A DNA stretch of 64,000 nt from Niabella sp. (GCA_017744795.1 JAGIAQ010000001.1:15403-79402), one strand, 5' to 3'; shown: positions 195 through 14,842, counted from the first letter of the stretch. The notes: generated by a model not told the origin, from the letters alone. Program-made: numbers and translations.

Positions 195-502
195 TCTGCT
201 TCCCGGTCATTTTTATTGCGCGCATAAGACCAAAACTCCTTTTTCCCTAGCACAGTTTACATTCTGTAGTAATTTCTATTTTATTGAAATTAAGTCATTT
301 GTATTTGAAAAAGCAGATGCTTAAGAACGCCTGCCTTTGCCTGAAAGATTTTTTCGTTTGCGTGCTATACTTGTAAATGAAAAGCTGCTTTGGCTATTAA
401 AAAACTGATTGCCACTTCAGCTGCGAAAAAGTTTTTAGTAACAAATAACGATCCCATATGATGTATTCCAGAAAAAGGTACCCCTCCCGGCGAGGTAAAA
501 CA

Positions 503-3500
503 ATGCCTCATTTTTTCCTGTTACTGCTGATGGCACTTTTAGTTTCCGGCAGTCTTTGTGCACAGCAGGCAGCAACCACTGTAAGTGGTATTGTAACCAA
601 TAATAAAGGCACCGCCCTTGCCGGTGTAACGGTAGCCGAAAAAAACGGCACTAACAAAACACAAACAAACGCTTCCGGATATTTTAAGCTCGAAAACAGC
701 CGGGATAACCGGGTGCTGCTCTTCACCATGGTGGGGTATACTTCTAAAGAGGTGGAAGTGGGCGATGCGGCACAGATCGCAGTAGTACTGGAGCAGGACG
801 TGCTTTCTCTTTCGGATATTGTGGTGATCGGGTACGGCACCCAAAACCGCAAAAACCTTACCTCCTCGATCGCTTCGGTAAAAGGTGCTGATATTGCGAA
901 CGTTCCGGTTACTAACCTGGACGCAGCCATGCAGGGCAAAATAGCAGGGGTGCAGGTGGTACAGAATTCCGGCGCGCCGGGTGATGAAACCTATATCCGC
1001 GTAAGGGGCAACGGCTCTTTATTTGGGGAAAACAGGCCCTTGTATGTAATTGATGGTGTGCCTATGAACAATATCCCTGCAGGCGCTTCTCCCCTCGGGG
1101 GCGATGGGCAGCGGATCACGGCTACTAATGATATCAATCCAAATGATATTGAGTCCATTGACGTGTTGAAAGACGCCGCTGCAACCGCCATCTATGGTTC
1201 CCGTGCGGCAAATGGTGTGATCCTCATCACGACCAAGAAGGGAAAACCCGGTAAATCGAAATTCAATTTCAGCATGTACAGCGGTGTGGCAACAGTTACC
1301 AAAAGGCTGCCGCTGCTAAATAACACGCAGTATGTTGACCTGATCAATGAGGAGCGGACCAATGCAAAGCTTCCCGCAGATCCCTATATTGTTAAAACAG
1401 ATACCAATACCAACTGGCAGGACGCTATCTTCCGGCCGGCACCCATATCAGAGTTTAATCTCTCTGTGTCCGGCGGCGATGTAAAATCCTCTCATTATGT
1501 ATCGGTGGGCTACCTCGATCAAACCGGTACCGTTGTAGGGCAGCAGCATTTTAAGCGGATCAATGGCCGGGCCAATTTTGATTTTGCCGCCACCCGGAAT
1601 TTTAAAATGGGCGTTAGTATTAACGGGATGCACTCGATCAACAACCGCATCGACAACAGCTTTTCCGGCGCCTCCGTATTGGCAAATGCGTTGATCATGA
1701 ACCCCAATTTTCCGGTTTATAACAGCGACGGTACTTATTTCTTCGATCCCAGCCGCAGGGCAGCCAACCCGGTAATGCTGGCAAATATGCTGCGATTTGT
1801 GTCCATTGTGGACCGGTATGTGGGCAATGTGTACGGCGAGCTGGCCATAACCAACAATTTAAAACTGCGCTCCAGTTTTGGTATGGATAACCAGATCGTA
1901 CAGGACGACCGGTACCAGACAACCATCGTTAACGGTAAAACACCGGCAACGGGCGCCGCTGATTATTTCAGCCAATTATTGTGGCTTAACGAAAATACTT
2001 TAACCTACACCCCCAAATTAAAAGGCCGGCACGACCTGGTGGGCGTTATCGGGGAAAGTCAGCAGTTAACCACATTGCGTCGTATCGGCGCGGCGGGCAG
2101 TACCAGTTCTACGGACCTGATCGAATCGGTTTCGGGATTTACCGTGCGCACCGAAGCCAGCGATTATCGCTCCAAATCCGGCCTGGTCTCTTATTTCGGC
2201 CGTTTGAATTATAGCTTCGCCAACCGATACCTGGTGCAGCTTGCGGCCCGTATGGACGGCTCCTCCCGTTTTGGGGCCGACAAACGCTATGGTTTTTTCC
2301 CTACCGCATCCGGCGCCTGGCGCATAAGCCAGGAAGCCTTTATGCAAAACCAGCATTTTATAAACGATCTTAAATTGCGCGGAAGCATCGGGGTTTCCGG
2401 AAGCCAGGAAGGACTGGGGTCTGATTTCCCGTCCCTGGCCACTTATGCTGCCGGAGCCAATTATGGTAATGAAGCAGGCATTGCCAAGGCCTCCTTATCG
2501 AATAAGGACCTTAGCTGGGAGGCTACAACCCAAAGCAACCTGGGGCTGGACCTTACCTTTCTGGACAGCCGTATCAACATTACCGTGGATGCCTACAATA
2601 AAGCAACGAACAAGCTCATCTTTAAATTAGAGCTCCCTTATACTTCCGGATTTACGCGTACCAATGGTGCCAATATTGGTAAAATGGTGAATAAAGGGTT
2701 AGATGTGAATATCAGTACCGAAAATATCCGGGGCAAATTTTCCTGGGTTACTAACTACAATATGTCGTTCAACCGCAACAAGATCACTTATCTGCCGGAA
2801 GTGGTGGAGGGAGATCCCACCAGCTCGGACTTTACCGAATCGCTGCCCGGTGTGTACGGAACCATACAACCCACCAGTATTTTCAGAGTGGGTTCCTCTG
2901 TTGGATCATTTTTTGGCTACAACAGTTTGGGAGTAGATCCGGCCACCGGCAATATGATCTACCAGGATGTTAACAATGACGGCAAGATCACCGCGGCCGA
3001 CCGGGTTATTATCGGAAATGCATTGCCTAAGTTTACCGGCGGATTCACCAATAATTTCAGCTACAAAGGATTTGACCTCAGCATCTTCTTCAATTTTTCT
3101 TATGGCAACCAGGTGTACAACCAAACAAGGGCCATCCTGGAGCGCATGGCCGGGTTTAATAATGGTAACACCAATACATTAAATCGTTGGACTACCAGCA
3201 ATACCAACACAAAAGTGCCCATTGCTGTGTTTAATGATCCGGTGATCCTGCCCAACAGCACCAGCAACGGCGTGATGTCCCAGCGCTGGGTGGAAGATGG
3301 TTCCTTTGTTCGCCTGAAGAATCTTACCCTAAGCTATACACTCCCGAAAGCACTGATCAGCCGCGTCAAACTGAGCAACGTAAAAGTATATGTAAGTGGA
3401 ACGAACCTGGCACTTTGGACAAAGTATTCCGGGTATGATCCTGAATCCCAAAATCAATCTGTGAAGAATTCACAACTGGGAATTGACTATGCAGTGCAGC

Positions 3501-3544
3501 CGCAGCCCCGTACGCTAATGGCAGGTTTAAATGTAAGCTTCTAA
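503..3544 (+). CDS. SusC/RagA family TonB-dependent transporter
   Basis: Signal peptide from ATG 503 (ORF track starts at 458). Carboxypeptidase-regulatory-like N-domain, IVVIGYGTQ, LYVIDGVP, INPNDIESIDVLKDAAATAIYGSRAANGVILITTKKG, C-terminal Phe. No N-terminal STN extension seen. Confidence 0.96.
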   Translation: MPHFFLLLLMALLVSGSLCAQQAATTVSGIVTNNKGTALAGVTVAEKNGTNKTQTNASGYFKLENSRDNRVLLFTMVGYTSKEVEVGDAAQIAVVLEQDVLSLSDIVVIGYGTQNRKNLTSSIASVKGADIANVPVTNLDAAMQGKIAGVQVVQNSGAPGDETYIRVRGNGSLFGENRPLYVIDGVPMNNIPAGASPLGGDGQRITATNDINPNDIESIDVLKDAAATAIYGSRAANGVILITTKKGKPGKSKFNFSMYSGVATVTKRLPLLNNTQYVDLINEERTNAKLPADPYIVKTDTNTNWQDAIFRPAPISEFNLSVSGGDVKSSHYVSVGYLDQTGTVVGQQHFKRINGRANFDFAATRNFKMGVSINGMHSINNRIDNSFSGASVLANALIMNPNFPVYNSDGTYFFDPSRRAANPVMLANMLRFVSIVDRYVGNVYGELAITNNLKLRSSFGMDNQIVQDDRYQTTIVNGKTPATGAADYFSQLLWLNENTLTYTPKLKGRHDLVGVIGESQQLTTLRRIGAAGSTSSTDLIESVSGFTVRTEASDYRSKSGLVSYFGRLNYSFANRYLVQLAARMDGSSRFGADKRYGFFPTASGAWRISQEAFMQNQHFINDLKLRGSIGVSGSQEGLGSDFPSLATYAAGANYGNEAGIAKASLSNKDLSWEATTQSNLGLDLTFLDSRINITVDAYNKATNKLIFKLELPYTSGFTRTNGANIGKMVNKGLDVNISTENIRGKFSWVTNYNMSFNRNKITYLPEVVEGDPTSSDFTESLPGVYGTIQPTSIFRVGSSVGSFFGYNSLGVDPATGNMIYQDVNNDGKITAADRVIIGNALPKFTGGFTNNFSYKGFDLSIFFNFSYGNQVYNQTRAILERMAGFNNGNTNTLNRWTTSNTNTKVPIAVFNDPVILPNSTSNGVMSQRWVEDGSFVRLKNLTLSYTLPKALISRVKLSNVKVYVSGTNLALWTKYSGYDPESQNQSVKNSQLGIDYAVQPQPRTLMAGLNVSF

Positions 3545-3563: not shown

Positions 3564-4976
3564 ATGAGAATCATAATTTATATATGCGGTTTGCTGTTTA
3601 TAACCTCCTGCACGCGGGTGCTGGACCAAACCCCGCAAGACCGGATCAGCGAACAGAACTTCTATAAAACGGCCACCGACGCCGAATCGGCCGTTGTGGG
3701 TATTTACAATTCGGTACAGACATTTGCACAGAGTTCCGGTCCGCAGTACCCACTGGCTTTTGATGCAGGGTCAGACCTTGATTCTGCACTATTGCTGAAC
3801 TACAATCCCTACAGCAAACACCTCATCCCCGTAGATGACCCCATCGTTCAAAACTATTGGATGAATAATTATACCGGTATCGGGCGTTGTAATGATGTGA
3901 TCCAGAATGTAGGGGGCATGGATTCCACGCTTTTTGCATCCGGTCAGAAACAGCGCATATTGGGCGAAGCCTATTTTATGCGGGCCTACTTCTATTTTGG
4001 ACTGATCAGGGCCTACGGTGATGTGCCTATTGTAACAGTGCCTTATCAATCCTATAATACCAATTTTACGATTCCCCGTTCTGCAACAGCCGATGTATTT
4101 AAGCAAATACTTGCCGATCTTAAAATTGCGGAAGCAACCCTGCCCGTTACCTATCCTGCCAGTATAGACACCCGCGGCCGTGCCACCCAGGGCGGTGCAA
4201 AAGCCCTGCTGGCGCAAGTATATCTCAGCACTAAAGATTATGCCAATGCTGCCGCAAAAGCATTGGAGGTTATGAATAATTCAACCTATACGCTGGTAAC
4301 AGGAGCTGCAGCTTACCGTTCTATGTTCTCTCCCAATGGTAAAAACGGAACAGAATCGATCTTTGAGATCCAGTACCTGACGTCCAGCAATCAGCCCAAC
4401 AGTCTTTCCAGTTTTTACCTGCCCAACGGGGTACCATCCGGTATTCAGCCCAGCAGTTACCAGATAGCGCCTACGGCAAAAATTGTAAATGCCTTTGAAA
4501 CGGGCGATATCCGCGCCGCAACAGCCGTTGCCCGCAGCACGGATAAAATTCCGGTTCCCTATGTGTTCAAATACCAGCGGCTGACCAACGGTACCGATCA
4601 GAACTTCATCGCCATACGCCTGGCGGAGATCATTTTGCTGAGAGCCGAAGCGCTCAACAACCAGGGGCAAACAACAGACGCCATTGCAGCATTAAATATT
4701 ATTCGTAGAAGAGCTTTTGGTCTTCCGCTGGATGTGGCTTCTGTACACGATTTTCCCAGTGCCAATGATCTGGCTAATAACTATACCCTGGCATTAGCGA
4801 TAGAAAATGAACGCATGAAAGAATTATGTTTTGAGGGACAGCGTTTTTACGACCTGGCGCGCACAGGGCGGTCACAGGATATAATGAATGTGCCTGCCAA
4901 CCGGATGGTATGGCCGATCCCCCTGCGTGAGATCGGACGTAATCCATTGCTGACGCAGAATGAAGCGTATAAATAA
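3564..4976 (+). CDS. SusD/RagB family surface lipoprotein
   Basis: Lipobox FITSC; GEAYFMRAYFYFGLIRAYGDVP, IRLAEIILLRAEAL and ERMKELCFEGQRFYDLAR motifs; directly follows SusC. Confidence 0.96.
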   Translation: MRIIIYICGLLFITSCTRVLDQTPQDRISEQNFYKTATDAESAVVGIYNSVQTFAQSSGPQYPLAFDAGSDLDSALLLNYNPYSKHLIPVDDPIVQNYWMNNYTGIGRCNDVIQNVGGMDSTLFASGQKQRILGEAYFMRAYFYFGLIRAYGDVPIVTVPYQSYNTNFTIPRSATADVFKQILADLKIAEATLPVTYPASIDTRGRATQGGAKALLAQVYLSTKDYANAAAKALEVMNNSTYTLVTGAAAYRSMFSPNGKNGTESIFEIQYLTSSNQPNSLSSFYLPNGVPSGIQPSSYQIAPTAKIVNAFETGDIRAATAVARSTDKIPVPYVFKYQRLTNGTDQNFIAIRLAEIILLRAEALNNQGQTTDAIAALNIIRRRAFGLPLDVASVHDFPSANDLANNYTLALAIENERMKELCFEGQRFYDLARTGRSQDIMNVPANRMVWPIPLREIGRNPLLTQNEAYK

Positions 4977-5023
4977 TCCCATTGATAGCTAGTGCCTGGC
5001 ATTTGTAAAGTAGCGTATAACAT

Positions 5024-5080
5024 CGTGAGAAATGAAAGGATAAACGTGAACGCCTCACGTTTATCCTTTGAGATTTCACG
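5024..5080. repeat. Intergenic inverted repeat / stem-loop
   Basis: AAAGGATAAACGTGA (5035-5049) pairs perfectly with TCACGTTTATCCTTT (5055-5069) around a 5-nt loop; imperfect extension to 5024/5080. Confidence 0.85.
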
Positions 5081-5168
5081 GTTAACACTGGAGGCACTTC
5101 AAAAACTGTGACAGGCGGTATAAATGACTACCACATTAACGATAATTAATAACGATCTTAGAGCAATA

Positions 5169-8100
5169 ATGAAACGAAGAAATGGAAGGCGCACGCTCCT
5201 ACAGGGCTGTATCGGTTTGATGATCTGTTTTTCCTGCGTACAACTGAACGGGCAAATGACGGCGCCCGCAGATTGGGTAAATTATGACGCCGTTTTTGGC
5301 GTAAAAGGAAAGCAGCGGTCTTATAATTACGATGTAGCGGTTATAGCCTCTAACACAGAAACAAATGTGCTCTGGCCGGGCGAACAACCTGCATATACCA
5401 TCCAGGTGGTTAATAATCTTAACGAGCCGATCAAAGCCGGTGGCAAAATAGTGCTTATCCATTATGGTCTCAAAGGACGGCCCAATGATATCTGGCTGCC
5501 TGAAGTGATTGCATTGAATGACAGCCTGTCCACATCCATAACGGTAGACATCAATACAAAGGGATATCAGGATATAAAGATCACACCCAATGTTCCGGCA
5601 ACCTTTGGAGGCTATGCGCTGATTGTGGACCTGGGCAAATATGGGCGCCGATTGATCACTAGTGTGGTGCGCAGTTTTGCTGCCAACCCGCAGCGGATCC
5701 AGTATCCCAAACAATCGCTGGATGATATGGGCGCCGATTTCCTGCACCGGATTGGGGTACAGGCTATCAGGATGGGTATCGACTATACACCCACCACTGC
5801 CGCGGATTATGAAAGCAAAATGGCAGAAATAATCGCAAAACTTAAAAAGTACCGCGAAAAGAATATTACCGTACTGCTGATGTTTGGTGCCGGCACTGCA
5901 AAAATGCCGCTGGGCATGCCACGGTCCTTCCTGGACGATGCAGGCATCATGCGCAAAACAAAACAGGATTATGCATGGCTGCCATCGGAAGATGCCGACT
6001 TTAAAAAATTTGTACAAAGGCTTTGCACCGATTACGGATGGCCGAAAGGCCCGGTAACAGCCGTTTCCTTATGGAATGAACCCTGGGAAGGAGCTTCTAT
6101 ATCGGGCTGGCAATCGGATATTCTACGGTACCGGGAGATCTACACAAAGATGGCAGAAGCGGTGCTGGCAGCCCGTCAAACGGGAGCGGAGGTACTTGTA
6201 GGCGGCGGTGACTCTAATTCCAACGCCTGGGACAAATTATTCGCTGACGGCAAAATGACCTTTCTGCCCATTTTTGATTTTTGTTCCATCCATTACCAGG
6301 GAATAGAAGCCCCCAGCATTTACCCCGAATGGGTAAACCGCAAATCGCCCTACGGCCGGGTAAAAATATGGGATACCGAAAGCTGGGTGGGCAATACAGA
6401 TGATCGCATAGGTCTTACAGTAGCCGTGGATCGTTCAGCCGGGTACGATCGTTCTATGGGCATTTATGCCGGATATTTGAGTACCGGTGGCCGGGGCAGC
6501 GAGCGGTTTCGTCAACGTGTAAGAACGGCTTCCGGGAGTATGCAGATCGATCGCATCCCGGACACCTGGTCGCCTTCGGTAGCGGTGGCGGCCGTACAAC
6601 ACCTGATTGGTGAGCGGGCTTTTGACCGTTTGCTGTTTAAAAAAGGATTGCCCTGGGTAATGCTGTTTGACGGGATAAATAAAAACCCGGATGATGGCAC
6701 GGCGGTGATATGCGGCGATATCGGCGAAGCCTTCGGCGCCGAGCATGTTTTGTTCCGGAACGTACGCGGATTAAAAGAGATCAGTGAAAAAGAGAAGATC
6801 CGGCAATACCTGGCAACCACGCAGGTTACGGCAACGCAAAAGGACAGTCTTCAAAATATCCTCAGAACATATGAACCCTTATCCGATGGAAAAATGCTGT
6901 TGCCGGCAAATAAACATTTTATCCTGTTCGATTTTTACGGGAACCCCATCCGGCCAAAGGGATCAAATATTGAAATACCGTTGAACACGCAGGGCTACTA
7001 CCTGCGCACCGATGGCAGCAAGGGCTCTTTTACCGCGTTGTTACAGGCAATCAACACTGCCCGAATCGAAGGGTATGAGCCCGTGGAGATCATTGCCAAA
7101 GACATGACGGCCGCCGTTGCCACCCATCCGGTAATGGAACTGCAGCTCACCAATATTCTTAACAGGCCCATAAAAGGAAAAATTAAGGTATCGCTGGGAT
7201 CATTAAAAACAATAGTTCCTGAAACAATAAGCTTTGCCGCGCATGAAACAAAGATGATACCGGTAACCATCACCGGCGGGGCTCCTGTCGCCAACAATAC
7301 ATACCCGCTCGCCGTGCATATAGATGCCGGTGCAGATGGCTTTGCGGTGTTGTATGAGGATATGCATGTAAACCTCATTTCACATCTTACCATAAACGTA
7401 GACGGCAAACTGGACGATTGGAAGCAGGCAATACCACAAACGGTTTCCAGCAATGGTGCGGGCACGGTGAGCCTCACAGAAGCGGCCTGGTATCCGTTTA
7501 AAAATTTTGATACCCGTTCCGATGGCTTTGCCAACGGTTATCTGGCATATGATAACCAGTATTTTTATTTTGCTGCCAAGGTTGCCGACAATACCCCGCA
7601 TCCCGGTACCTACCGTTTTGCCAACAGGCCGGATGACAGCTTCTTTTACCCGGATACTTCCTATATTATGAACATGGACAAAACGTTGCTGTCGAAGGAA
7701 GATAGTGTACCCGTGAAAGCCAGTGACAGCTGGGCTTTGGAGCGGCCTGATGCTAATGGGCGCAGCATGCACTATTGGTGTAGCAGTGATGTTTCCTATG
7801 CCTTCGCTGTTAATCTGGATCTTCCGGAAAATAACTATACAAGGGTATCTTTTTATTTACCCAATATCAAAGTGCCTAATGCTACAATAGAGTTGTTTGA
7901 TGCCGTTACCAACAAGTTTCTGCAGCGCCGGAAGATCGATAACCTGTGGAACGGGGCTTACGAGACCTTTGATCTGAGTGGTAAAGTGCGCGTGGTGTTC
8001 CGCGCCTATAACTGGTGGACCAGTGTAAAGCTGGCCGGTATCTTTTTCGATCCCTCACCTGTTGCATATAACAAAGAGAAAGCGATTTTTATTTCCGAAG

Positions 8101-8813
8101 ATCTGGATTCCAAAGGCGACTGGAAAAATAAATATGGAAAGCTGGGGTATAAAATAATTGGAGCAGAAGATCAGTTGCCCGGCAACCTATCAATAGCGCC
8201 TGTTACAACAGAAGAGAAAATACCGCTGGTATGGCCGGAAGGCGTGCGCCGGTTCACTTACCGAAGAAATCCGGTGACGCCCGATAATTCGGGCCTTGGC
8301 TTTTCCTACGATAATGTTTTGATCGCATTCAATGTAATTCCCGAAGGGCAGGACGGTATGCTGGCTAACCCTCCCGGAACGATGCCCCGGTATATTGGTT
8401 ATAAAGACACGGATTACGAATACGCGCTGAATAGTGTATCAGATGAATTTGGCGGGGGTACAGAAATATGGCGGCTGCTGGCGCCGGGTATGAACCGGAA
8501 GCATTTTTTCCCCCGGCAGCCAAAATCAGCCGGGGAAGGGCCTGTTAAAAATGGGAAGCTCGTCATCAAAAGAAACGGGAACACCCTCATTACAGAATGC
8601 GCTATTCCCTGGCCGGAACTGCCGGATGTAAAAAAAGCACTGGACGCAGGCAAAAAAATAAAATTCTCGTTCCGGGTGAATGATAACGGGGCTCCGGGCA
8701 GTGTAATGGAGCTGGCAAAAGAACGAAGTGTTTCCAAATTAAATGCCCGGGCTTTTCACCCCGACTGGAAAACGCATTGGGCTAACGAAGTAGAATTTTC
8801 ATTTGAAAAATAA
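5169..8813 (+). CDS. Secreted multidomain clan GH-A (GH39-like) glycoside hydrolase candidate with Ig-like and DOMON/CBM9-like modules
   Basis: Signal peptide from ATG 5169 (ORF track starts at 5124). SLWNEP acid/base-type motif, DFCSIHY, KIWDTESW nucleophile-type motif; later VDGKLDDW...LAYDNQYFYFAAKV...FSFRVNDN DOMON-like motifs. Confidence 0.6.
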   Translation: MKRRNGRRTLLQGCIGLMICFSCVQLNGQMTAPADWVNYDAVFGVKGKQRSYNYDVAVIASNTETNVLWPGEQPAYTIQVVNNLNEPIKAGGKIVLIHYGLKGRPNDIWLPEVIALNDSLSTSITVDINTKGYQDIKITPNVPATFGGYALIVDLGKYGRRLITSVVRSFAANPQRIQYPKQSLDDMGADFLHRIGVQAIRMGIDYTPTTAADYESKMAEIIAKLKKYREKNITVLLMFGAGTAKMPLGMPRSFLDDAGIMRKTKQDYAWLPSEDADFKKFVQRLCTDYGWPKGPVTAVSLWNEPWEGASISGWQSDILRYREIYTKMAEAVLAARQTGAEVLVGGGDSNSNAWDKLFADGKMTFLPIFDFCSIHYQGIEAPSIYPEWVNRKSPYGRVKIWDTESWVGNTDDRIGLTVAVDRSAGYDRSMGIYAGYLSTGGRGSERFRQRVRTASGSMQIDRIPDTWSPSVAVAAVQHLIGERAFDRLLFKKGLPWVMLFDGINKNPDDGTAVICGDIGEAFGAEHVLFRNVRGLKEISEKEKIRQYLATTQVTATQKDSLQNILRTYEPLSDGKMLLPANKHFILFDFYGNPIRPKGSNIEIPLNTQGYYLRTDGSKGSFTALLQAINTARIEGYEPVEIIAKDMTAAVATHPVMELQLTNILNRPIKGKIKVSLGSLKTIVPETISFAAHETKMIPVTITGGAPVANNTYPLAVHIDAGADGFAVLYEDMHVNLISHLTINVDGKLDDWKQAIPQTVSSNGAGTVSLTEAAWYPFKNFDTRSDGFANGYLAYDNQYFYFAAKVADNTPHPGTYRFANRPDDSFFYPDTSYIMNMDKTLLSKEDSVPVKASDSWALERPDANGRSMHYWCSSDVSYAFAVNLDLPENNYTRVSFYLPNIKVPNATIELFDAVTNKFLQRRKIDNLWNGAYETFDLSGKVRVVFRAYNWWTSVKLAGIFFDPSPVAYNKEKAIFISEDLDSKGDWKNKYGKLGYKIIGAEDQLPGNLSIAPVTTEEKIPLVWPEGVRRFTYRRNPVTPDNSGLGFSYDNVLIAFNVIPEGQDGMLANPPGTMPRYIGYKDTDYEYALNSVSDEFGGGTEIWRLLAPGMNRKHFFPRQPKSAGEGPVKNGKLVIKRNGNTLITECAIPWPELPDVKKALDAGKKIKFSFRVNDNGAPGSVMELAKERSVSKLNARAFHPDWKTHWANEVEFSFEK

Positions 8814-8849: not shown

Positions 8850-9557
8850 ATGATCCTTAAATTTAAATTTGTTTTATTTTTTTTACTGGCAGCTAACTTA
8901 CTACTGACGGCGCAGCCTTCCACTACGGTGCCTGTAGTACAAAACAGGGATAAATTATACGACTGGCAACAGCGGCATGAGGCGATACTCGCTTTGAATA
9001 AAGAAAATCCACCCCGCAATGTGATCATGGGAAACTCCATTATTCATTACTGGGCGGGACTGCCCAAGGGGCCCGTTGTGCGTGGAGCAGATTCCTGGAA
9101 CGAATATTTGGAACCGTTGGGGTTAAGGAATATGGGTTTTGGATGGGACAAAATTGAAAACGTTTTATGGCGTGTGCAAAATGGAGAATTGGATGGGTAT
9201 GCGGCAAAACACGTGGTGCTGATGATCGGCACCAATAACTTAGGCGATAGTAATGACAAGGATATAATTGAAGGACTAACCGTATTGGTAAAAGCAGTAC
9301 GGCAACATCAGCCTGCTGCTAAGATTATATTGTCTGGCGTTTTACCGCGCCGTAAACAGGAAGAGCGGATCTTTACCTTAAACAAAGCCATTAAAAAACT
9401 TGCCCGTAAAAGCCATGTTGTATTTATTAACCCGGGCCTGTTATTTTTAAACAAGCAAAATAAAATTGACGAGCAATGGTTTGTTGACGGCCTGCATCCC
9501 AATGCCGCCGGGTATCGGAAAATAGCGCCTTTATTGGCGGGATATTTGAAGGATTAA
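8850..9557 (+). CDS. SGNH/GDSL esterase (probable carbohydrate acetylesterase)
   Basis: Signal peptide; blocks GNSI, NMGFG, GTNN and DGLHPN. Confidence 0.88.
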   Translation: MILKFKFVLFFLLAANLLLTAQPSTTVPVVQNRDKLYDWQQRHEAILALNKENPPRNVIMGNSIIHYWAGLPKGPVVRGADSWNEYLEPLGLRNMGFGWDKIENVLWRVQNGELDGYAAKHVVLMIGTNNLGDSNDKDIIEGLTVLVKAVRQHQPAAKIILSGVLPRRKQEERIFTLNKAIKKLARKSHVVFINPGLLFLNKQNKIDEQWFVDGLHPNAAGYRKIAPLLAGYLKD

Positions 9558-9731: not shown

Positions 9732-11564
9732 TTAGTGCATCTTCCTCATCTTTAGCAATCCGGATAAAGGAACCTTTATCGAATTTATTCCTTTATTAAG
9801 ATGTATCGTACGCGATTCCACTAACTTCCCTTCACAGTTAAAAATTTCCGCCATAAATGTTCTGTTCTGTTGCAGGTTTATTTGTACCTCTTCAGTGGTT
9901 TTGGCATTGATAATATCCGCCTGTTGTATTTTATCATTTATTTCAACCGGCAGGTCTGCGTATAAACCAATGATCGTTTTATTGTTTTTTGTACTTATTA
10001 ATATGGGATAATTCAGTTCAGGATGAAAAGGTTTGAAATCGCCGTTTAGTAAAATGTCACGGTTGTGCAGCCAATAGCTGGTATAAAACCGGACCATATT
10101 CATTTGAGCTGTGGGTATTTCATTGAGCCTTACGGAAAGTTGCGGAACCGCAAAAAGTACATTCAAAAATTGCAGCGCGGCAATGGAAGCAGGTTCATCT
10201 TTATTCCAGGTAAGCATATCGGAATGAGTGGCAGAGGTTCCCGCCAGCAGCTTAACATCGGTAGTGCGAATGCGGTTGGCAATAGCGCCATCCGGACAAT
10301 CTCCTGCCCGGAACATATTGCCATACTTACGCATGGCCGGCCCTGTATAGGATTGACGGAATTCAATCAGGACCTCCGGGTTTACGGCAGTGAGCCTTTT
10401 TTTAATGCCCGCCATCAGTGTATCCACAGCATCATAAAGTGAGGCAATATCAGCGTCTTTTCCCGCTGGGGGAACAACGGTTTCCATACCGGTAAAACTG
10501 TCAATAAAGTCCAGCTTAAATCCATCTAACCCCCACTGCTTTTGAGCGGTTGCATATTTGTCAATAAGGAAAGCGCGCACATCCGGATACCGGGGATCCA
10601 ATATAGCCGCTGCCCGCCGGTCATTTTGAGAAAGATATTTTCCTTTGAATCGTTTATAAGCGTCTGCGTAGTAGCCGACAAACGGAACGGAATACCACAG
10701 CATGCATTTCATCCCTAATGCGTGTACCTTGCGTACAAATCCCGCCATATCCGGCAGCCGGTCCGGGTTCCAGTCGCCCGTGTAACCATAGCCCCTGATG
10801 GCTTTTGCCGTTTGCCAGCCGTCATCCACAATGATCGTTTCATAGCCCAGTTGTTTCGCTTTTGTACATTCATCCAGTAATTGTTGGGCGGTAAAATTCT
10901 GATGGTAGCTGTACCAGGTGGAATACATCGGCATTTTAGCCGTGGCGGGCGTTGCAGCCGGGTGGTAACGCGGCATTGCTGCCCACCAGCGGGATACGTT
11001 TTTAAGTACATCGGAATAAGGACCGGTACGGTCATCCAGCAAAAGCGTTACACTGTAGTCGCTTTGCAGATCGGACGCATTCAAAGAAACGGTTGCAGAG
11101 CAGTTTACCGCACTTTTTTCTTCGTCAATGCCTGCTGTTAGTGCACTTTGGTGCAGGGCATCGGACAGAGCAAATGTATGCCTGTTGGTGCTGTTAGAAC
11201 CAAATACGCATAATACAGGCGCATGACTGGAAATATTTGACTGGATCATTGACCGCATACGGGTAAAGCGGGTATCGTCGCTATTGCTTGTCCAGCATCC
11301 TACAATGTCTTTCATCGGTACCAGCCATGAAACGGAGAATTTATTAAAAGAACTGTCTGTTCTTTTGAATGTGAAGGTTATTTCGGTAACGCCCTCCTGA
11401 TCGGATTTCGTGCTGAGCGCCAGCCGGGCCCCCTTTAGGTCCTTTACCAAAAAAGTATATTTTCCGGCCGGAAATTCCTGCGCCTGAGCACGGACTAAAA
11501 CGAAAATTAAAAGGCAGAGTCCCAGGTATCTCGCAATGGTCCGATTGGGTATTTGTTTTTTCAT
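9732..11564 (-). CDS. GH36-like alpha-galactosidase (secreted)
   Basis: Signal peptide; YSTWY, IIVDDGW, MLWY, GFKLDF and FRAGD motifs of clan GH-D barrels. Confidence 0.8.
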   Translation of the reverse strand: MKKQIPNRTIARYLGLCLLIFVLVRAQAQEFPAGKYTFLVKDLKGARLALSTKSDQEGVTEITFTFKRTDSSFNKFSVSWLVPMKDIVGCWTSNSDDTRFTRMRSMIQSNISSHAPVLCVFGSNSTNRHTFALSDALHQSALTAGIDEEKSAVNCSATVSLNASDLQSDYSVTLLLDDRTGPYSDVLKNVSRWWAAMPRYHPAATPATAKMPMYSTWYSYHQNFTAQQLLDECTKAKQLGYETIIVDDGWQTAKAIRGYGYTGDWNPDRLPDMAGFVRKVHALGMKCMLWYSVPFVGYYADAYKRFKGKYLSQNDRRAAAILDPRYPDVRAFLIDKYATAQKQWGLDGFKLDFIDSFTGMETVVPPAGKDADIASLYDAVDTLMAGIKKRLTAVNPEVLIEFRQSYTGPAMRKYGNMFRAGDCPDGAIANRIRTTDVKLLAGTSATHSDMLTWNKDEPASIAALQFLNVLFAVPQLSVRLNEIPTAQMNMVRFYTSYWLHNRDILLNGDFKPFHPELNYPILISTKNNKTIIGLYADLPVEINDKIQQADIINAKTTEEVQINLQQNRTFMAEIFNCEGKLVESRTIHLNKGINSIKVPLSGLLKMRKMH

Positions 11565-11592: not shown

Positions 11593-13152
11593 TCATTTCT
11601 GCATGATTGCATTCGGGGCCACTTCGGCATTCCGGGTGTAAATCTTTTGAACGCCATTCCAATCATTATTCACCAGCAATATGCGGCTGGTGCGGGCATC
11701 GCGTAAATGCAGAAACAATGGGATCACTCCGGGAGCAATATACCCGGAGATAGAAAGGTTCTTTGTTGCATCGCACATAATGACCGGGCTTGTATTTTTC
11801 AGGGCGGGTGCCTGCAACTGATCGATCTTTATCTGCGTAGCATCACTAAAATAAAGCGCGGAACGGCTGTCTTCATGCTGTAACTGCAGCACCAGGTTAT
11901 CGATGGTCAGGTTTTTCACATGCCGCACAAACAGACCGTATGCAGGAAGCGTTGCGCCAAACATCCGGTTCTCCGGGTAGGCCTTTTCATTTTCGGGGAT
12001 TGTTGGGGCAGCGTCATGCGGACCTGCCATTCCGGGCGCTTCAATAAAAATATCTCTCAGCGTAACATTATCTACATAAAATCCGGGAACAGCCGTGATG
12101 CTGCTGGGAATGGGGCTGCAGGCCCGGGCAATTATATTGCTTATGATAATATTTCGAAGTGATCCTGTTGGATGGCTCCGGCTGCCTAATCGCATAAATA
12201 CCGGCGTTTGAACCCCCTCCATAGTAATATTGCTGATGCTGATGCGATCCATGGCCCCACCGTCTACCACTTCCAGAGCAATACCGGCCAGACCCGATAT
12301 AGAGTCAATTACTCCCAGGTTCTTTTTATTCCAGAACCGGAAATTTGATTCGGATGCCCTGCGAAGCGCACAGTTGGAAACCGCAATATTCTTAAAACCA
12401 CCCGCCGAGGCCGTACCCATTTTTATAAAATTGCAATTGGAGGCAATAACACAATTGGTAACGGTTACATTCTCGCAGATAAAAGGGCTGTCGCTCTTAA
12501 AACAAATGCCGTCGTCATCCGTATCGATCACGCAATTGCTGATCGTTACATTCCGGCTGTCAATATCAATCCCATCATTATTAAAATTGGCATGAGAATA
12601 AATGTGGATCCGGTCAATAACAACATCTTCGTCGTATAGCAGGTGGAGGCCCCAAAAGGCCGAGTTTTTAAGTGTTATCCCGGTAATACTTATTTTTTTC
12701 GATCGTTTAAACGAGATCAGTACCGGCCGGTCCGGCGCATTATCTCCTTTTAAAAAGGCACGACCGTTTCCATCAATTTCCCCTTCGCCGGAAAGGGCGG
12801 CATTGATGACCTCATAAGCGGTGATCAGCGCCTTTTCTCCTTTAGAAGTACCATAATCGTCCTTGCTGGCGCTGCCCCATAGTACGGCTCCTCGTTCAAG
12901 ATGGAGTTCAACATTGTCTTTGAGCGCAAGCATTCCCGTCAAAAATTTTCCAGTGGGGATCATTACCCGGCCGCCGCCCTCCCGGGAACACTGGTTGATC
13001 GCTTTTTGAATAGAAGCCGTAGCGATCGTTTTTCCATCGGGCAGGGCCCCGAAATCCCGGATATTGTAGTCTGCTGCTTCCGTTTTAGAAAACATGAAAA
13101 GCAGGCAACCCGCTGTTATTGTTTTTACGATGGCAATCAAATGGCTTTTCAT
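11593..13152 (-). CDS. GH28 family beta-helix glycoside hydrolase (divergent)
   Basis: Start refined to ATG 13152, giving a signal peptide. YNIRDFGALPDGKT, IPTGKFLTG, NNDGIDID and DDDGICFKS motifs. Confidence 0.85.
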   Translation of the reverse strand: MKSHLIAIVKTITAGCLLFMFSKTEAADYNIRDFGALPDGKTIATASIQKAINQCSREGGGRVMIPTGKFLTGMLALKDNVELHLERGAVLWGSASKDDYGTSKGEKALITAYEVINAALSGEGEIDGNGRAFLKGDNAPDRPVLISFKRSKKISITGITLKNSAFWGLHLLYDEDVVIDRIHIYSHANFNNDGIDIDSRNVTISNCVIDTDDDGICFKSDSPFICENVTVTNCVIASNCNFIKMGTASAGGFKNIAVSNCALRRASESNFRFWNKKNLGVIDSISGLAGIALEVVDGGAMDRISISNITMEGVQTPVFMRLGSRSHPTGSLRNIIISNIIARACSPIPSSITAVPGFYVDNVTLRDIFIEAPGMAGPHDAAPTIPENEKAYPENRMFGATLPAYGLFVRHVKNLTIDNLVLQLQHEDSRSALYFSDATQIKIDQLQAPALKNTSPVIMCDATKNLSISGYIAPGVIPLFLHLRDARTSRILLVNNDWNGVQKIYTRNAEVAPNAIMQK

Positions 13153-13301
13153 CTTAATATATCGTTGAGTAATTAAATCTATAGCAAGAATGGTCGGCGT
13201 GATTAAAAAGTATCTTCCTACCATAGCCCTGGGTGATTGAAACAAGAGCTTTTCGAATGCCCGGCTAATGATTAGCACGCAGCTTTTTGAGCAGCCCAGG
13301 G

Positions 13302-13537: not shown

Positions 13538-14842
13538 ATGAAAACTCATAGTTATTTATCAAAATGCGTCGGGCTTATTGAAGAAAAGCTTAATTGGGGA
13601 GACCGGAACCAGTGGATCGACTATAATTTCAAAACCTTAAGTGACCAAATATATCAAGTTTCTAATATTACTATTAGCATCCGCACACTGAAGCGTATTT
13701 TTAAACCCGCCAATACTACGGAAGCGTCGTACGAACCGCAGATCGCTACTAAAAATGCATTAGCGCAGTTTTTAGGTTACCGTGACTGGATGCATTTTGT
13801 TAACGAATATTTCCAGGAACCGGGGGAATCCAATGGGCAGCCCGCACCTGCTGCTGTCTCAGGTAACGATCCGATAGCGCCCGTTGCTGTGGAAGCGGGG
13901 AGAAAACCGGCAAGAAAACGGATCATCCGCCTGATCATCGCCGGATCCGTGCTGTTGCTGGCGGTTGGTTTTATGATTGCCCGGGGGAAAAAGAAGGTTG
14001 CATTTTCCGTAATAAAAACAGGGGGCGCCGATTCGCATAACGCAGCACTTAGCTACGACATAAGCTCCATTAATTTTGATAATGCCATTATTGATTTTGA
14101 TAACGGTCAGTTCAAGTCGCTTTCCAGCAAAAAGGGAGAACTGGTTTTTTCTTATAAAACACCCAATTTTTACCGGATAAAGCTGATCTCAGATGGCAAA
14201 ATCCGCTCAACCGCTGAAATGGAGATCCCTTCAAACGGGTGGGTCTGTTATATTGGTAATAATGATGCCAATGCCCGGGTGATCGAAGACAGGCGGCTAT
14301 TTACAAAGGACGGTGCTTTATATTTTCCGCCTGCGGAAATAGCAAAGATAAATATTGATACCACCAGTGAATATTGGGCCGATTACCGGAATATAAAAGA
14401 TTTTCACCTGGATGGCGACAACTTTATTATGGAGCTTCGGTTGAAGAACAGCAAGCAAACCGGTGGGGTGGATTGTTTTGATACCTGTATTGAATGGGTT
14501 GGGGAAACCGGCAAAGGACGCTATAAATTCGTACGCCCGAATTGCACCGAATATGCGGACGCCCAGTTTGGCGATATGCAGGTTTCCGGAAGTTTTCATA
14601 ACCTCTCGGCACTGGGCACCGATTTATCCAACTGGACAACGATCCGGATTGAAGTAAAAGACAAACAGGGGATGGTGTTTGTAAACAACCATCCCAAATA
14701 TGCGTTGAAATATAATACGCCGATCGGCGATGTACGGGGCATTTTTTGTCGTTTTAAAGGATCCGGCGCCCTGGATTACGTCAAGATTTACAACCTTAAT
14801 AAACAGCTTGTTTACGATGATGAGTTTAATGCGGCAGATTGA
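13538..14842 (+). CDS. Uncharacterised bitopic membrane protein: N-terminal HTH-like domain, one TM helix, periplasmic beta-sandwich domains; candidate one-component regulator
   Basis: FKTLSDQI...ISIRTLKRIF helix pair; basic RKPARKR immediately before the hydrophobic IIRLIIAGSVLLLAVGFMIA (aa ~129-148); beta-rich C-terminus. CDS is clear; function is inferred. Confidence 0.6.
   Translation: MKTHSYLSKCVGLIEEKLNWGDRNQWIDYNFKTLSDQIYQVSNITISIRTLKRIFKPANTTEASYEPQIATKNALAQFLGYRDWMHFVNEYFQEPGESNGQPAPAAVSGNDPIAPVAVEAGRKPARKRIIRLIIAGSVLLLAVGFMIARGKKKVAFSVIKTGGADSHNAALSYDISSINFDNAIIDFDNGQFKSLSSKKGELVFSYKTPNFYRIKLISDGKIRSTAEMEIPSNGWVCYIGNNDANARVIEDRRLFTKDGALYFPPAEIAKINIDTTSEYWADYRNIKDFHLDGDNFIMELRLKNSKQTGGVDCFDTCIEWVGETGKGRYKFVRPNCTEYADAQFGDMQVSGSFHNLSALGTDLSNWTTIRIEVKDKQGMVFVNNHPKYALKYNTPIGDVRGIFCRFKGSGALDYVKIYNLNKQLVYDDEFNAAD

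Follow-up and report, generated by a model that had tools for sequence, protein, structure and literature searches.

The window analyzed here, a stretch of 64,000 nucleotides from Niabella sp. (GCA_017744795.1 JAGIAQ010000001.1:15403-79402), contains at positions 5169-8813 of the + strand a gene whose product we consider, with a probability of roughly 0.7, to be an exported, probably periplasmic multidomain glycoside hydrolase (GH) with a retaining barrel of the clan GH-A type, belonging to a family that stands isolated in sequence space. The analysis shows the gene, its family, the predicted fold, and the placement and invariance of the catalytic-type residues; hydrolase activity, retention of configuration and periplasmic location are what we infer for this protein. 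Judged from sequence, its relatives form a compact, isolated family of putative enzymes of about 1,200 amino acids with a fixed architecture that is not described in Pfam, NCBIfam or the PDB, and they probably represent a candidate new GH family in a known clan, a status that refers to these three resources only and not to the lists of CAZy.

The gene lies within an open reading frame (ORF) of 1,229 codons (5124-8813, + strand; ORF listing of the window), and its coding sequence starts at the second ATG (5169), in agreement with the start sites of homologs. An earlier reading made without database searches (the sequence-only reading) had given the same coordinates, which are correct as judged from the ORF, the signal peptide and the homolog starts, and its secreted protein of about 1,200 residues is indeed one of 1,214 residues with a predicted signal peptide. 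Residues are given here in mature numbering, which was also used to build the alignments and in which residue 1 is Met30 of the precursor (window position 5256).
5169-8813, + strand: whole coding sequence of the putative glycoside hydrolase, 1,214 amino acids and a stop codon (ORF list, translation, full-length homologs)
5169-5252, + strand: predicted signal peptide of about 28 amino acids (read from the sequence; conserved junction in the N-termini of about 80 homologs)

AlphaFold2 models were computed for the full-length mature protein (59-sequence alignment; mean predicted local distance difference test score (pLDDT) 83.7, predicted template modelling score (pTM) 0.80) and for the barrel alone (mature residues 140-545; 65 sequences down to 43% identity; pLDDT 88.3, pTM 0.85). 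The positions of strands and helices were read solely from the DSSP strings of the models and by strand counting. The full-length model shows the same domain order as had been read from the sequence, an Ig-like N-terminal region followed by a barrel and further Ig-like domains, and it is beta-rich throughout the C-terminal region (mature residues 716-1185). Upstream of that region, the following parts can be distinguished.
5313-5675, + strand: N-terminal beta-sandwich (Ig-like), mature residues about 20-140 (strands 25-139); strands only in DSSP, pLDDT mostly above 85
5703-6755, + strand: (beta/alpha)8 barrel, the predicted catalytic domain, mature residues about 150-500 (full-length and barrel-only AlphaFold2 models; Foldseek)
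6771-6866, + strand: two-helix linker, mature residues 506-537 (DSSP)
6891-7385, + strand: two beta-sandwich domains, mature residues 546-614 and 626-710 (DSSP; pLDDT about 90)

Within the barrel, both models agree on these elements (mature residues).
Strand 1: 153-156
Helix 1: 160-166
Strand 2: 170-176, containing R172
Helix 2: 185-201
Strand 3: 205-211
Hairpin insert: 223-238
Helix 3: 243-260
Strand 4: 267-272, followed by W273-N274-E275-P-W-E-G
Helix 4: 286-307
Strand 5: 314-316
Helix 5: 321-328
Strand 6: 342-345, followed by H346-Y347
Strand 7: 370-373, followed by T374-E375-S-W
Helix 7: 382-394
Strand 8: about 399-400

Clan GH-A enzymes have in common an Arg on strand 2, an Asn-Glu on strand 4, an aromatic/His pair on strand 6 and a Glu on strand 7, and the residue pattern of the modelled protein matches this signature.
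5769-5771, + strand: Arg172 (precursor R201) on strand 2, invariant (alignments A1-A4; DSSP)
6075-6080, + strand: Asn274-Glu275 (precursor N303-E304) of WNEPWEG, directly after strand 4, predicted acid/base (translation, alignments, DSSP, hhalign)
6291-6296, + strand: His346-Tyr347 of SIHYQG, directly after strand 6, invariant (alignments, DSSP)
6378-6380, + strand: Glu375 (precursor E404), the predicted nucleophile, within IWDTESW and two residues past strand 7 (translation, alignments, DSSP)

By translation, WNEP lies at 6072-6083 (LWNEPW at 6069-6086), SIHYQ at 6285-6299 and WDTE at 6369-6380 (WDTESW at 6369-6386). All alignments, down to 43% identity, keep R172, E275, P276, W277, H346, Y347, D373, T374, E375, S376 and W377 without exception, and E278 is invariant as well; N274 does not vary in A1 and A3, and at least 90% of the sequences in A2 and A4 have it, with Asp in one sequence. 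The sequence-only reading had picked the glutamates of WNEP and WDTE as the catalytic pair, a choice that agrees with both models, in which Glu275 directly follows strand 4 and Glu375 stands two residues after strand 7. A placement of the two residues away from the ends of these strands, set beforehand as the refuting result, was seen in neither model. By analogy with all characterized clan GH-A families, the bond cleaved by the enzyme would be an equatorial glycosidic one (beta-D or alpha-L), and cleavage would proceed by a retaining double displacement, in which Glu275 (precursor E304) would serve as acid/base and Glu375 (precursor E404) as nucleophile, with Arg172 of strand 2 and His346-Tyr347 of strand 6 in assisting roles.

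The glycosidase activity is a prediction from the models, and the C-terminal 40% of the protein is CBM9-like and conserved like the barrel; these features would also be seen in a large protein of the periplasm or surface that binds glycans or serves as a scaffold and has retained the barrel fold. We nevertheless consider such a non-enzymatic role extremely improbable: dead homologs normally lose their catalytic residues, but here members from five phyla, with identities as low as 43%, strictly keep the set of R, NE, HY and E, as would be expected if the enzyme is active.

When the barrel was searched alone with Foldseek, 137 matches in the PDB were obtained at E<=0.001. The best 50 of these 137 belong to GH30, GH39 (PslG), GH35, GH53, GH164, a former GH5 xylanase and a putative beta-galactosidase; they include GH30 xylanases (4fmv, XynC, 1nof), GH35 beta-galactosidases, a GH53 galactanase and a GH164 beta-mannosidase. 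We take the families among these best 50 to be clan GH-A type retaining enzymes in the CAZy classification. Identities in this set are 10-15% at template modelling (TM) scores of about 0.5, and none of the families stands out. Together with the well-placed catalytic-type residues, these matches bear out the clan GH-A barrel of the sequence-only reading.

The whole model, searched against the PDB in the same way, matched GH2 (7nit, E 1e-12), GH66 dextranase and cycloisomaltooligosaccharide glucanotransferase (3e-9, target-normalised TM 0.32), GH39 PslG (1e-6) and also GH5. The high rank of GH66 in this search, together with the invariance of D373 and E278, would speak for a barrel that does not follow GH-A catalysis, namely a GH66/GH13-like enzyme with an Asp nucleophile (e.g. 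D373) or a phosphorylase or transglycosylase, and retaining GH-A enzymes often transglycosylate. This is very unlikely in our view. The GH66-like reading was rejected, as GH66 is gone from the best 50 of 137 matches once the barrel is searched alone; GH13 is absent there, too. The GH66 match of the whole model probably reflects a shared order of beta-sandwich, barrel and beta-sandwich, and N-E on strand 4, H-Y on strand 6 and E on strand 7 constitute the signature of clan GH-A.

On the basis of the models, the structurally nearest solved enzymes of this presumed clan GH-A glycosidase would be GH30 xylanases and the GH39 enzyme PslG. PslG of Pseudomonas aeruginosa (4zn2, 5bx9, 9g17) has a (beta/alpha)8 barrel with a beta-sandwich as well (Foldseek E about 3e-6, TM 0.45-0.48; 0.55 for the whole model when normalised to the length of PslG) and shares the NEP acid/base motif. 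However, identity is 11-15%, the target family never passes the Pfam threshold for GH39, and the Niabella protein, at three times the length of PslG, additionally has a beta-sandwich at its N-terminus, two further beta-sandwiches and a CBM9-like domain that is split. GH30 glucuronoxylanases (4fmv, Bacillus subtilis XynC 3kl0, 1nof) gave the best barrel E-value (4.9e-7, TM 0.50-0.53). They are retaining clan GH-A enzymes with a barrel and a tightly packed beta-domain, and GH30_8 members recognize a uronic-acid side chain, which would fit the uronic-acid enzymes encoded next to the target gene. Differences are again large, with 11-14% identity, no Pfam GH30 signal in the target family, a very different size and additional domains. 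Multidomain GH2 beta-glycosidases (Bifidobacterium bifidum BbgIII 7nit; Bacteroides uniformis BuGH2A 5t98 and BuGH2C 5t9g) resemble the whole model (E 1e-12 to 1e-8) in their large multidomain layout with beta-sandwiches flanking a GH-A barrel; in contrast, the global TM is 0.13-0.17, a Pfam GH2 match is missing, hhalign against a GH2 neighbor remained blank, and GH2 enzymes have two beta-domains before the barrel where the target has one.

Sequence bridges to GH39 are present but faint. Among 36 diverse family members scanned singly against Pfam at E<=1, GH39 appeared sub-threshold in three (best E 0.0021; 17.4 bits against a cut-off of 26), with matches that cover only profile positions 130-227 and are aligned to the WNEP-bearing part, and GH5 appeared sub-threshold in one (E 0.0051). 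The gathering score of Pfam GH39 (PF01229) was passed by none of the 36, and the window protein has no GH39 match at E<=1. An hhalign comparison of the family profile with the GH39 neighbor of a homolog (locus L003) reached an E-value of 0.0016 and placed WNEP on WNEP and SIHY on SSHPY. Structurally, PslG ranks 10-14 among the barrel matches and GH30 xylanases do equally well or better. As these bridges stay sub-threshold and weak, we did not file the protein in GH39. The sequence-only reading had left the choice between a GH39-like and an unclassified family; unclassified is what the searches of Pfam, NCBIfam and the PDB returned, and there is weak support from sequence for a GH39-like protein of clan GH-A.

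No match at E<=1 was found for the window protein in Pfam-A or NCBIfam (hmmscan), including the models for GH30, GH5, GH2, GH35, GH53 and GH164, and PDB chain sequences yielded nothing significant by phmmer or with two family profiles. An assignment to a characterized GH family, named in advance as refuting, was not obtained in the Pfam, NCBIfam or PDB sequence searches, and the observation that the protein has no obvious family assignment, made at first glance at the sequence, thus extends from the single sequence to the profiles. A search of 5.8 billion proteins retrieved 1,097 matches at E<=0.001. The alignments of the best 120 span 98-100% of the query at 54-73% identity; none of these 120 has a precomputed Pfam domain, and they are named 'hypothetical' or 'uncharacterized' throughout, as are all of the more than 200 homologs listed with their source names. 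Matches of nearly whole length persist at 43-50% identity. With a profile of the N-terminal half (A2), searched without word filter against 1.84 billion cluster representatives, 467 proteins were found at E<=0.001, and each of the best 150 had E<=1e-44. Given that this search yields only 467 proteins, with such E-values among the best, the family is apparently sharply bounded in sequence space and has no HMMER connection to any other family; a barrel-only sequence search likewise retrieved fragments of the same family, almost without Pfam labels. When prokaryotic species were scanned with one genome each, relatives were found to be encoded in 373 stretches from at least five phyla (Bacteroidota, Planctomycetota, Verrucomicrobiota, Armatimonadota and Lentisphaerota). 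The carriers among the Bacteroidota are Mucilaginibacter, Chitinophaga, Niastella, Puia, Bacteroides, Parabacteroides faecis, Dysgonomonas, Tannerella, Muribaculaceae and Prolixibacteraceae.

Absence from Pfam, NCBIfam and the PDB is no proof of absence from CAZy, where some TIM-barrel families had no crystal structure as of 2021, among them GH147, GH148 and GH169 (PMC8602953). The family might therefore already be known as one of these three, as a family numbered after about GH173, or as a distant subfamily within GH39 or GH30, in line with the sub-threshold GH39 signals. We regard this as rather unlikely. Literature searches found no description of the target family or of a matching new GH family, and the names 'hypothetical' and 'uncharacterized' attached to all of the listed homologs point in the same direction. 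GH147 was founded on members from Bacteroides, and the activities of GH147 and GH148, endo-beta-1,4-galactanase and endo-beta-1,4-glucosidase on konjac glucomannan (PMC6442616), have no obvious fit to a context of GH92, GH28 and GH88/105 genes. The best GH39 score stays below its cut-off, and Foldseek shows no preference for GH39 over GH30.

Several observations weigh against the assignment to clan GH-A and against what can be said of the substrate. The likeness to any single solved GH-A enzyme is modest (TM 0.45-0.5, root mean square deviation 6-9 A, 10-15% identity), the hhalign probability against the GH39 neighbor is 16%, and hhalign against a GH5-like/PA14 neighbor and against a GH2 neighbor gave no meaningful alignment. 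Strands 1 (153-156) and 8 (399-400) are short, and 'end of strand 4' and 'end of strand 7' rest on strand counting. In the full-length model, confidence is lowest (pLDDT below 50) in the most conserved loops of the protein, 275-286 and 346-352 (6078-6113 and 6291-6311), and in the barrel-only model it is lowest around the first of these, at mature residues 270-289 (pLDDT about 62-72). As these are active-site loops, the geometry of the pocket is modelled with low confidence. Finally, the literature yields no biochemical data for any family member, and the substrate is deduced from the gene neighborhood only, in which neighbor sets differ by clade and non-Bacteroidota have no fixed partner. The low confidence of the two loops may reflect a ligand- or metal-dependent conformation.

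The C-terminal region consists of a CBM9/DOMON-like domain in two parts and a domain between them.
7401-7664, + strand: first half of the split CBM9/DOMON-like domain, mature residues 716-803, starting with VDGKLDDW (high conservation; contiguous with the last 195 amino acids in a PA14-bearing member)
7665-8225, + strand: inserted beta-sandwich, less conserved, mature residues 804-990, replaced by PA14 in other members (BLASTP against the homolog P0378; Pfam PA14 labels)
8226-8810, + strand: second half of the CBM9/DOMON-like domain, mature residues 991-1185, very highly conserved (sub-threshold CBM9_1; DOMON in NCBI naming)

The division into two halves follows from P0378, which in BLASTP matches mature residues 572-803 and 991-1185 and in which a PA14 domain substitutes for 804-990; the CBM9/DOMON-like domain is thus split by a variable insert. 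CBM9_1 (PF06452) was matched sub-threshold by the last approximately 100 residues of 12 of the 36 members (best E 0.0012), whereas its gathering score of 23.4 bits was reached by none of the 36 (best listed scores 12-15.5 bits), and one homologous fragment is called 'DOMON domain-containing protein' in NCBI naming. Of the DOMON/CBM9-like C-terminus proposed in the sequence-only reading, the beta-rich fold is therefore confirmed in the model and the CBM9 label is plausible. A likeness to CBM9 lies in these matches of family members at the extreme C-terminus and in the start of the domain with DGxLDDW; unlike CBM9, the domain is interrupted by about 190 amino acids or by PA14 and is far more conserved than typical appended carbohydrate-binding modules (CBMs). 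Both halves are conserved to the same degree as the barrel. As this is unusual for an appended binding module, the sequence conservation suggests that the split domain is integral to function, perhaps with a part in the active site or in oligomerization. A search with the last 470 amino acids returned fragments of the family and a group whose match is limited to about 41-44% of the query. We rejected a reading of the final 200 amino acids as a mobile module shared with other glycosidases, since P0378 is a family member with a PA14 insert and the others are probably of the same kind or fragments. A further protein, P0381 (482 amino acids, on a 68-kb metagenome contig), has GH42/GH35 Pfam labels on its first approximately 226 residues, and its last 256 residues are 63% identical to mature residues 930-1185 of the target; it is either a natural fusion or deletion of neighboring genes or a gene-calling artefact.

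The translated precursor begins with MKRRNGRRTLLQGCIGLMICFSCVQLNGQ, followed by MTAPADW, that is, a charged start (MKRRNGRR), a hydrophobic core and a junction ending in NGQM. The predicted cleavage site precedes a conserved Gln-Met, which reads 'AQM' in most homologs and 'GQM' in the window protein, and about 80 homologs have at their N-termini a junction of the pattern A-Q-M-(K/R)-x-P-x-x-W, about 20-30 residues past the start codon. A Cys at the predicted junction is not conserved among these N-termini; an S-C pair is found 6-7 residues upstream of the junction in the window protein and its closest Mucilaginibacter relative. The Por_Secre_tail domain of the type IX secretion system (T9SS) was not detected in the window protein by Pfam hmmscan. 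With the conserved A-Q-M junction, no conserved lipoprotein Cys and no T9SS tail, the protein is most likely a substrate of signal peptidase I and periplasmic, and it more likely acts on imported oligosaccharides than as a surface enzyme selecting the polymer. The proposal that it is probably the specificity-defining enzyme of its polysaccharide utilization locus (PUL) finds no support in this form, and the likely periplasmic location weakens it as regards recognition at the cell surface.

The layout of a PUL itself is present in the window: the target gene follows a susC/susD pair, 192 bp past the susD-like gene on the + strand, and is co-oriented with the gene of an SGNH esterase. The Melibiase/GH31-like and GH28 genes converge on this operon; they are followed by the ORF of a 434-amino-acid protein, after which recA closes the locus.
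458-3544, + strand: SusC-like TonB-dependent transporter (Pfam Plug, TonB_dep_Rec, CarbopepD_reg_2)
3564-4976, + strand: SusD-like protein (Pfam SusD_RagB, SusD-like_3)
8850-9557, + strand: SGNH/GDSL esterase, 36 bp downstream of the target gene (Pfam Lipase_GDSL_2, 1.9e-23)
9732-11564, - strand: Melibiase/GH31-like (clan GH-D type) glycosidase, convergent (Pfam Melibiase 4e-10, GH31 3.5e-8)
11593-13278, - strand: GH28 enzyme, rhamnogalacturonidase/polygalacturonase-like (Pfam GH28, 8.6e-20)
13538-14842, + strand: 434-amino-acid protein without Pfam or NCBIfam match

The GH28 protein also matches the NCBIfam model of a BT4146-type rhamnogalacturonidase (5.5e-75), under the cut-off of that model, and the Melibiase/GH31-like gene is conserved only in the three closest loci. 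To see which partners accompany the family, ORFs were called within 10 kb on each side in 80 homologous loci and clustered, and the cluster representatives were labelled with Pfam; the resulting counts are inflated by kinship between the loci.
GH92: 35 of 80 loci
SusC: 32
SusD: 28
NHL-repeat protein with T9SS tail: 26
GH28: 24
GH88/105: 21
Relative of the 434-amino-acid protein of the window: 14
Extracytoplasmic function (ECF) sigma factor and FecR: 13
GH27 with NPCBM: 12
740-amino-acid protein: 11
GH2: 10
Hybrid two-component system (HTCS), GH31, SGNH and GH140-like: 8 each
BD-FAE esterases: 6
Further SGNH esterases: two clusters, 4 each

Directly upstream of the target gene stands a GH88/105 gene in 20 of these 80 loci and the NHL protein in 16; directly downstream, GH28 and GH92 are found in 14 each. 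The maximum-likelihood tree divides the family into four groups: one of non-Bacteroidota without fixed partner; the group of the window (Mucilaginibacter, Chitinophaga) with SusC/D and the NHL protein, and with GH28 in Mucilaginibacter-type loci; one of Bacteroidales and Prolixibacteraceae with GH28 and GH92 (plus GH140, GH31 and SGNH); and one with GH88/105 and GH92 (plus GH27 and GH2). Two Chitinophaga metagenome-assembled genomes each place a copy in two of the groups, which are thus paralogous subfamilies. Unlike its closest relatives, the window has no NHL gene between susD and the target gene.

Since the neighbors comprise enzymes for terminal uronic acids, alpha-mannosidases and esterases, gene context tentatively points to an esterified glycan containing uronic acid and mannose. 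The enzyme might then remove or cleave a beta-linked sugar in imported oligosaccharides from this glycan, a role that we put forward with the same reserve, and would work beside a uronic-acid-removing enzyme (GH28 or GH88/105) and GH92 alpha-mannosidases. A more far-reaching proposal, to which we give slightly less than even odds, is that of a new clan GH-A family, with this protein as its first member to be described, in at least five phyla and with partner-tied subfamilies, dedicated to a linkage in an esterified uronic-acid/mannose glycan and with the unusually conserved CBM9-like domain as part of the substrate site. The partner sets would be GH28 with GH92, GH88/105 with GH92 and GH27, or the NHL-repeat T9SS protein, and the glycan would be, for example, a polymer of the glucuronomannan or glucuronoxylomannan type for which no dedicated enzyme is known.

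Some further features of these loci deserve mention. Between susD and the target gene of the window, a long, nearly perfect RNA hairpin is predicted at 5022-5082 (+ strand; -33.1 kcal/mol, z-score -6.4 against shuffled sequences), with a perfect inner stem of 15 bp, an outer stem and no T-run after it. This hairpin could act in processing or stabilizing the transcript, or could serve as an attenuator that separates susD from the enzyme genes. Relatives of the 434-amino-acid protein are 24-58% identical and occur mostly in loci of the GH88/105 subfamily. A representative of this protein family combines an N-terminal part in the cytoplasm with a single predicted membrane helix and a beta-rich C-terminal part, and the protein may supply the regulator or sensor that is missing from these loci. 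In L004, L005, L006-L010, L012, L015 and others, the gap between susD and the target gene is occupied by the NHL-repeat/beta-propeller protein of about 720 amino acids with its T9SS C-terminal sorting domain, which could be a surface component of those loci. A second family without Pfam match, of about 740 amino acids (L022:6289-8511, cluster c11), occurs in loci of Bacteroidales, Puia, Planctomycetota and Lentisphaerota and is another candidate enzyme of the same pathway. In Prolixibacteraceae and Bacteroidales, a carbamoyltransferase (Carbam_trans_N/C) is encoded just upstream of the target gene (L002:4785-8848, L021:533-2974, L066, L074), and these loci also hold an SxtJ-like small protein, DUF5989 and SGNH-TPR proteins, which is odd for a catabolic glycan locus.

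PUL proteins without assigned function are the main reservoir of undiscovered carbohydrate-active enzymes, and among these the protein studied here is a well-defined target, with a large and bounded family, a confident fold prediction, a complete catalytic signature and partner enzymes that narrow down the substrate. If CAZy or dbCAN already assigns the family, the finding amounts to routine annotation. Cultured hosts are available, namely Mucilaginibacter gossypiicola, several Chitinophaga species, Parabacteroides faecis, Dysgonomonas and Bacteroides. Characterization of a member would probably add a family to CAZy and allow annotation of more than 1,000 homologs (373 species-representative genomes), and it would help to identify the glycan that is the target of these widespread loci in soil, sediment and gut.

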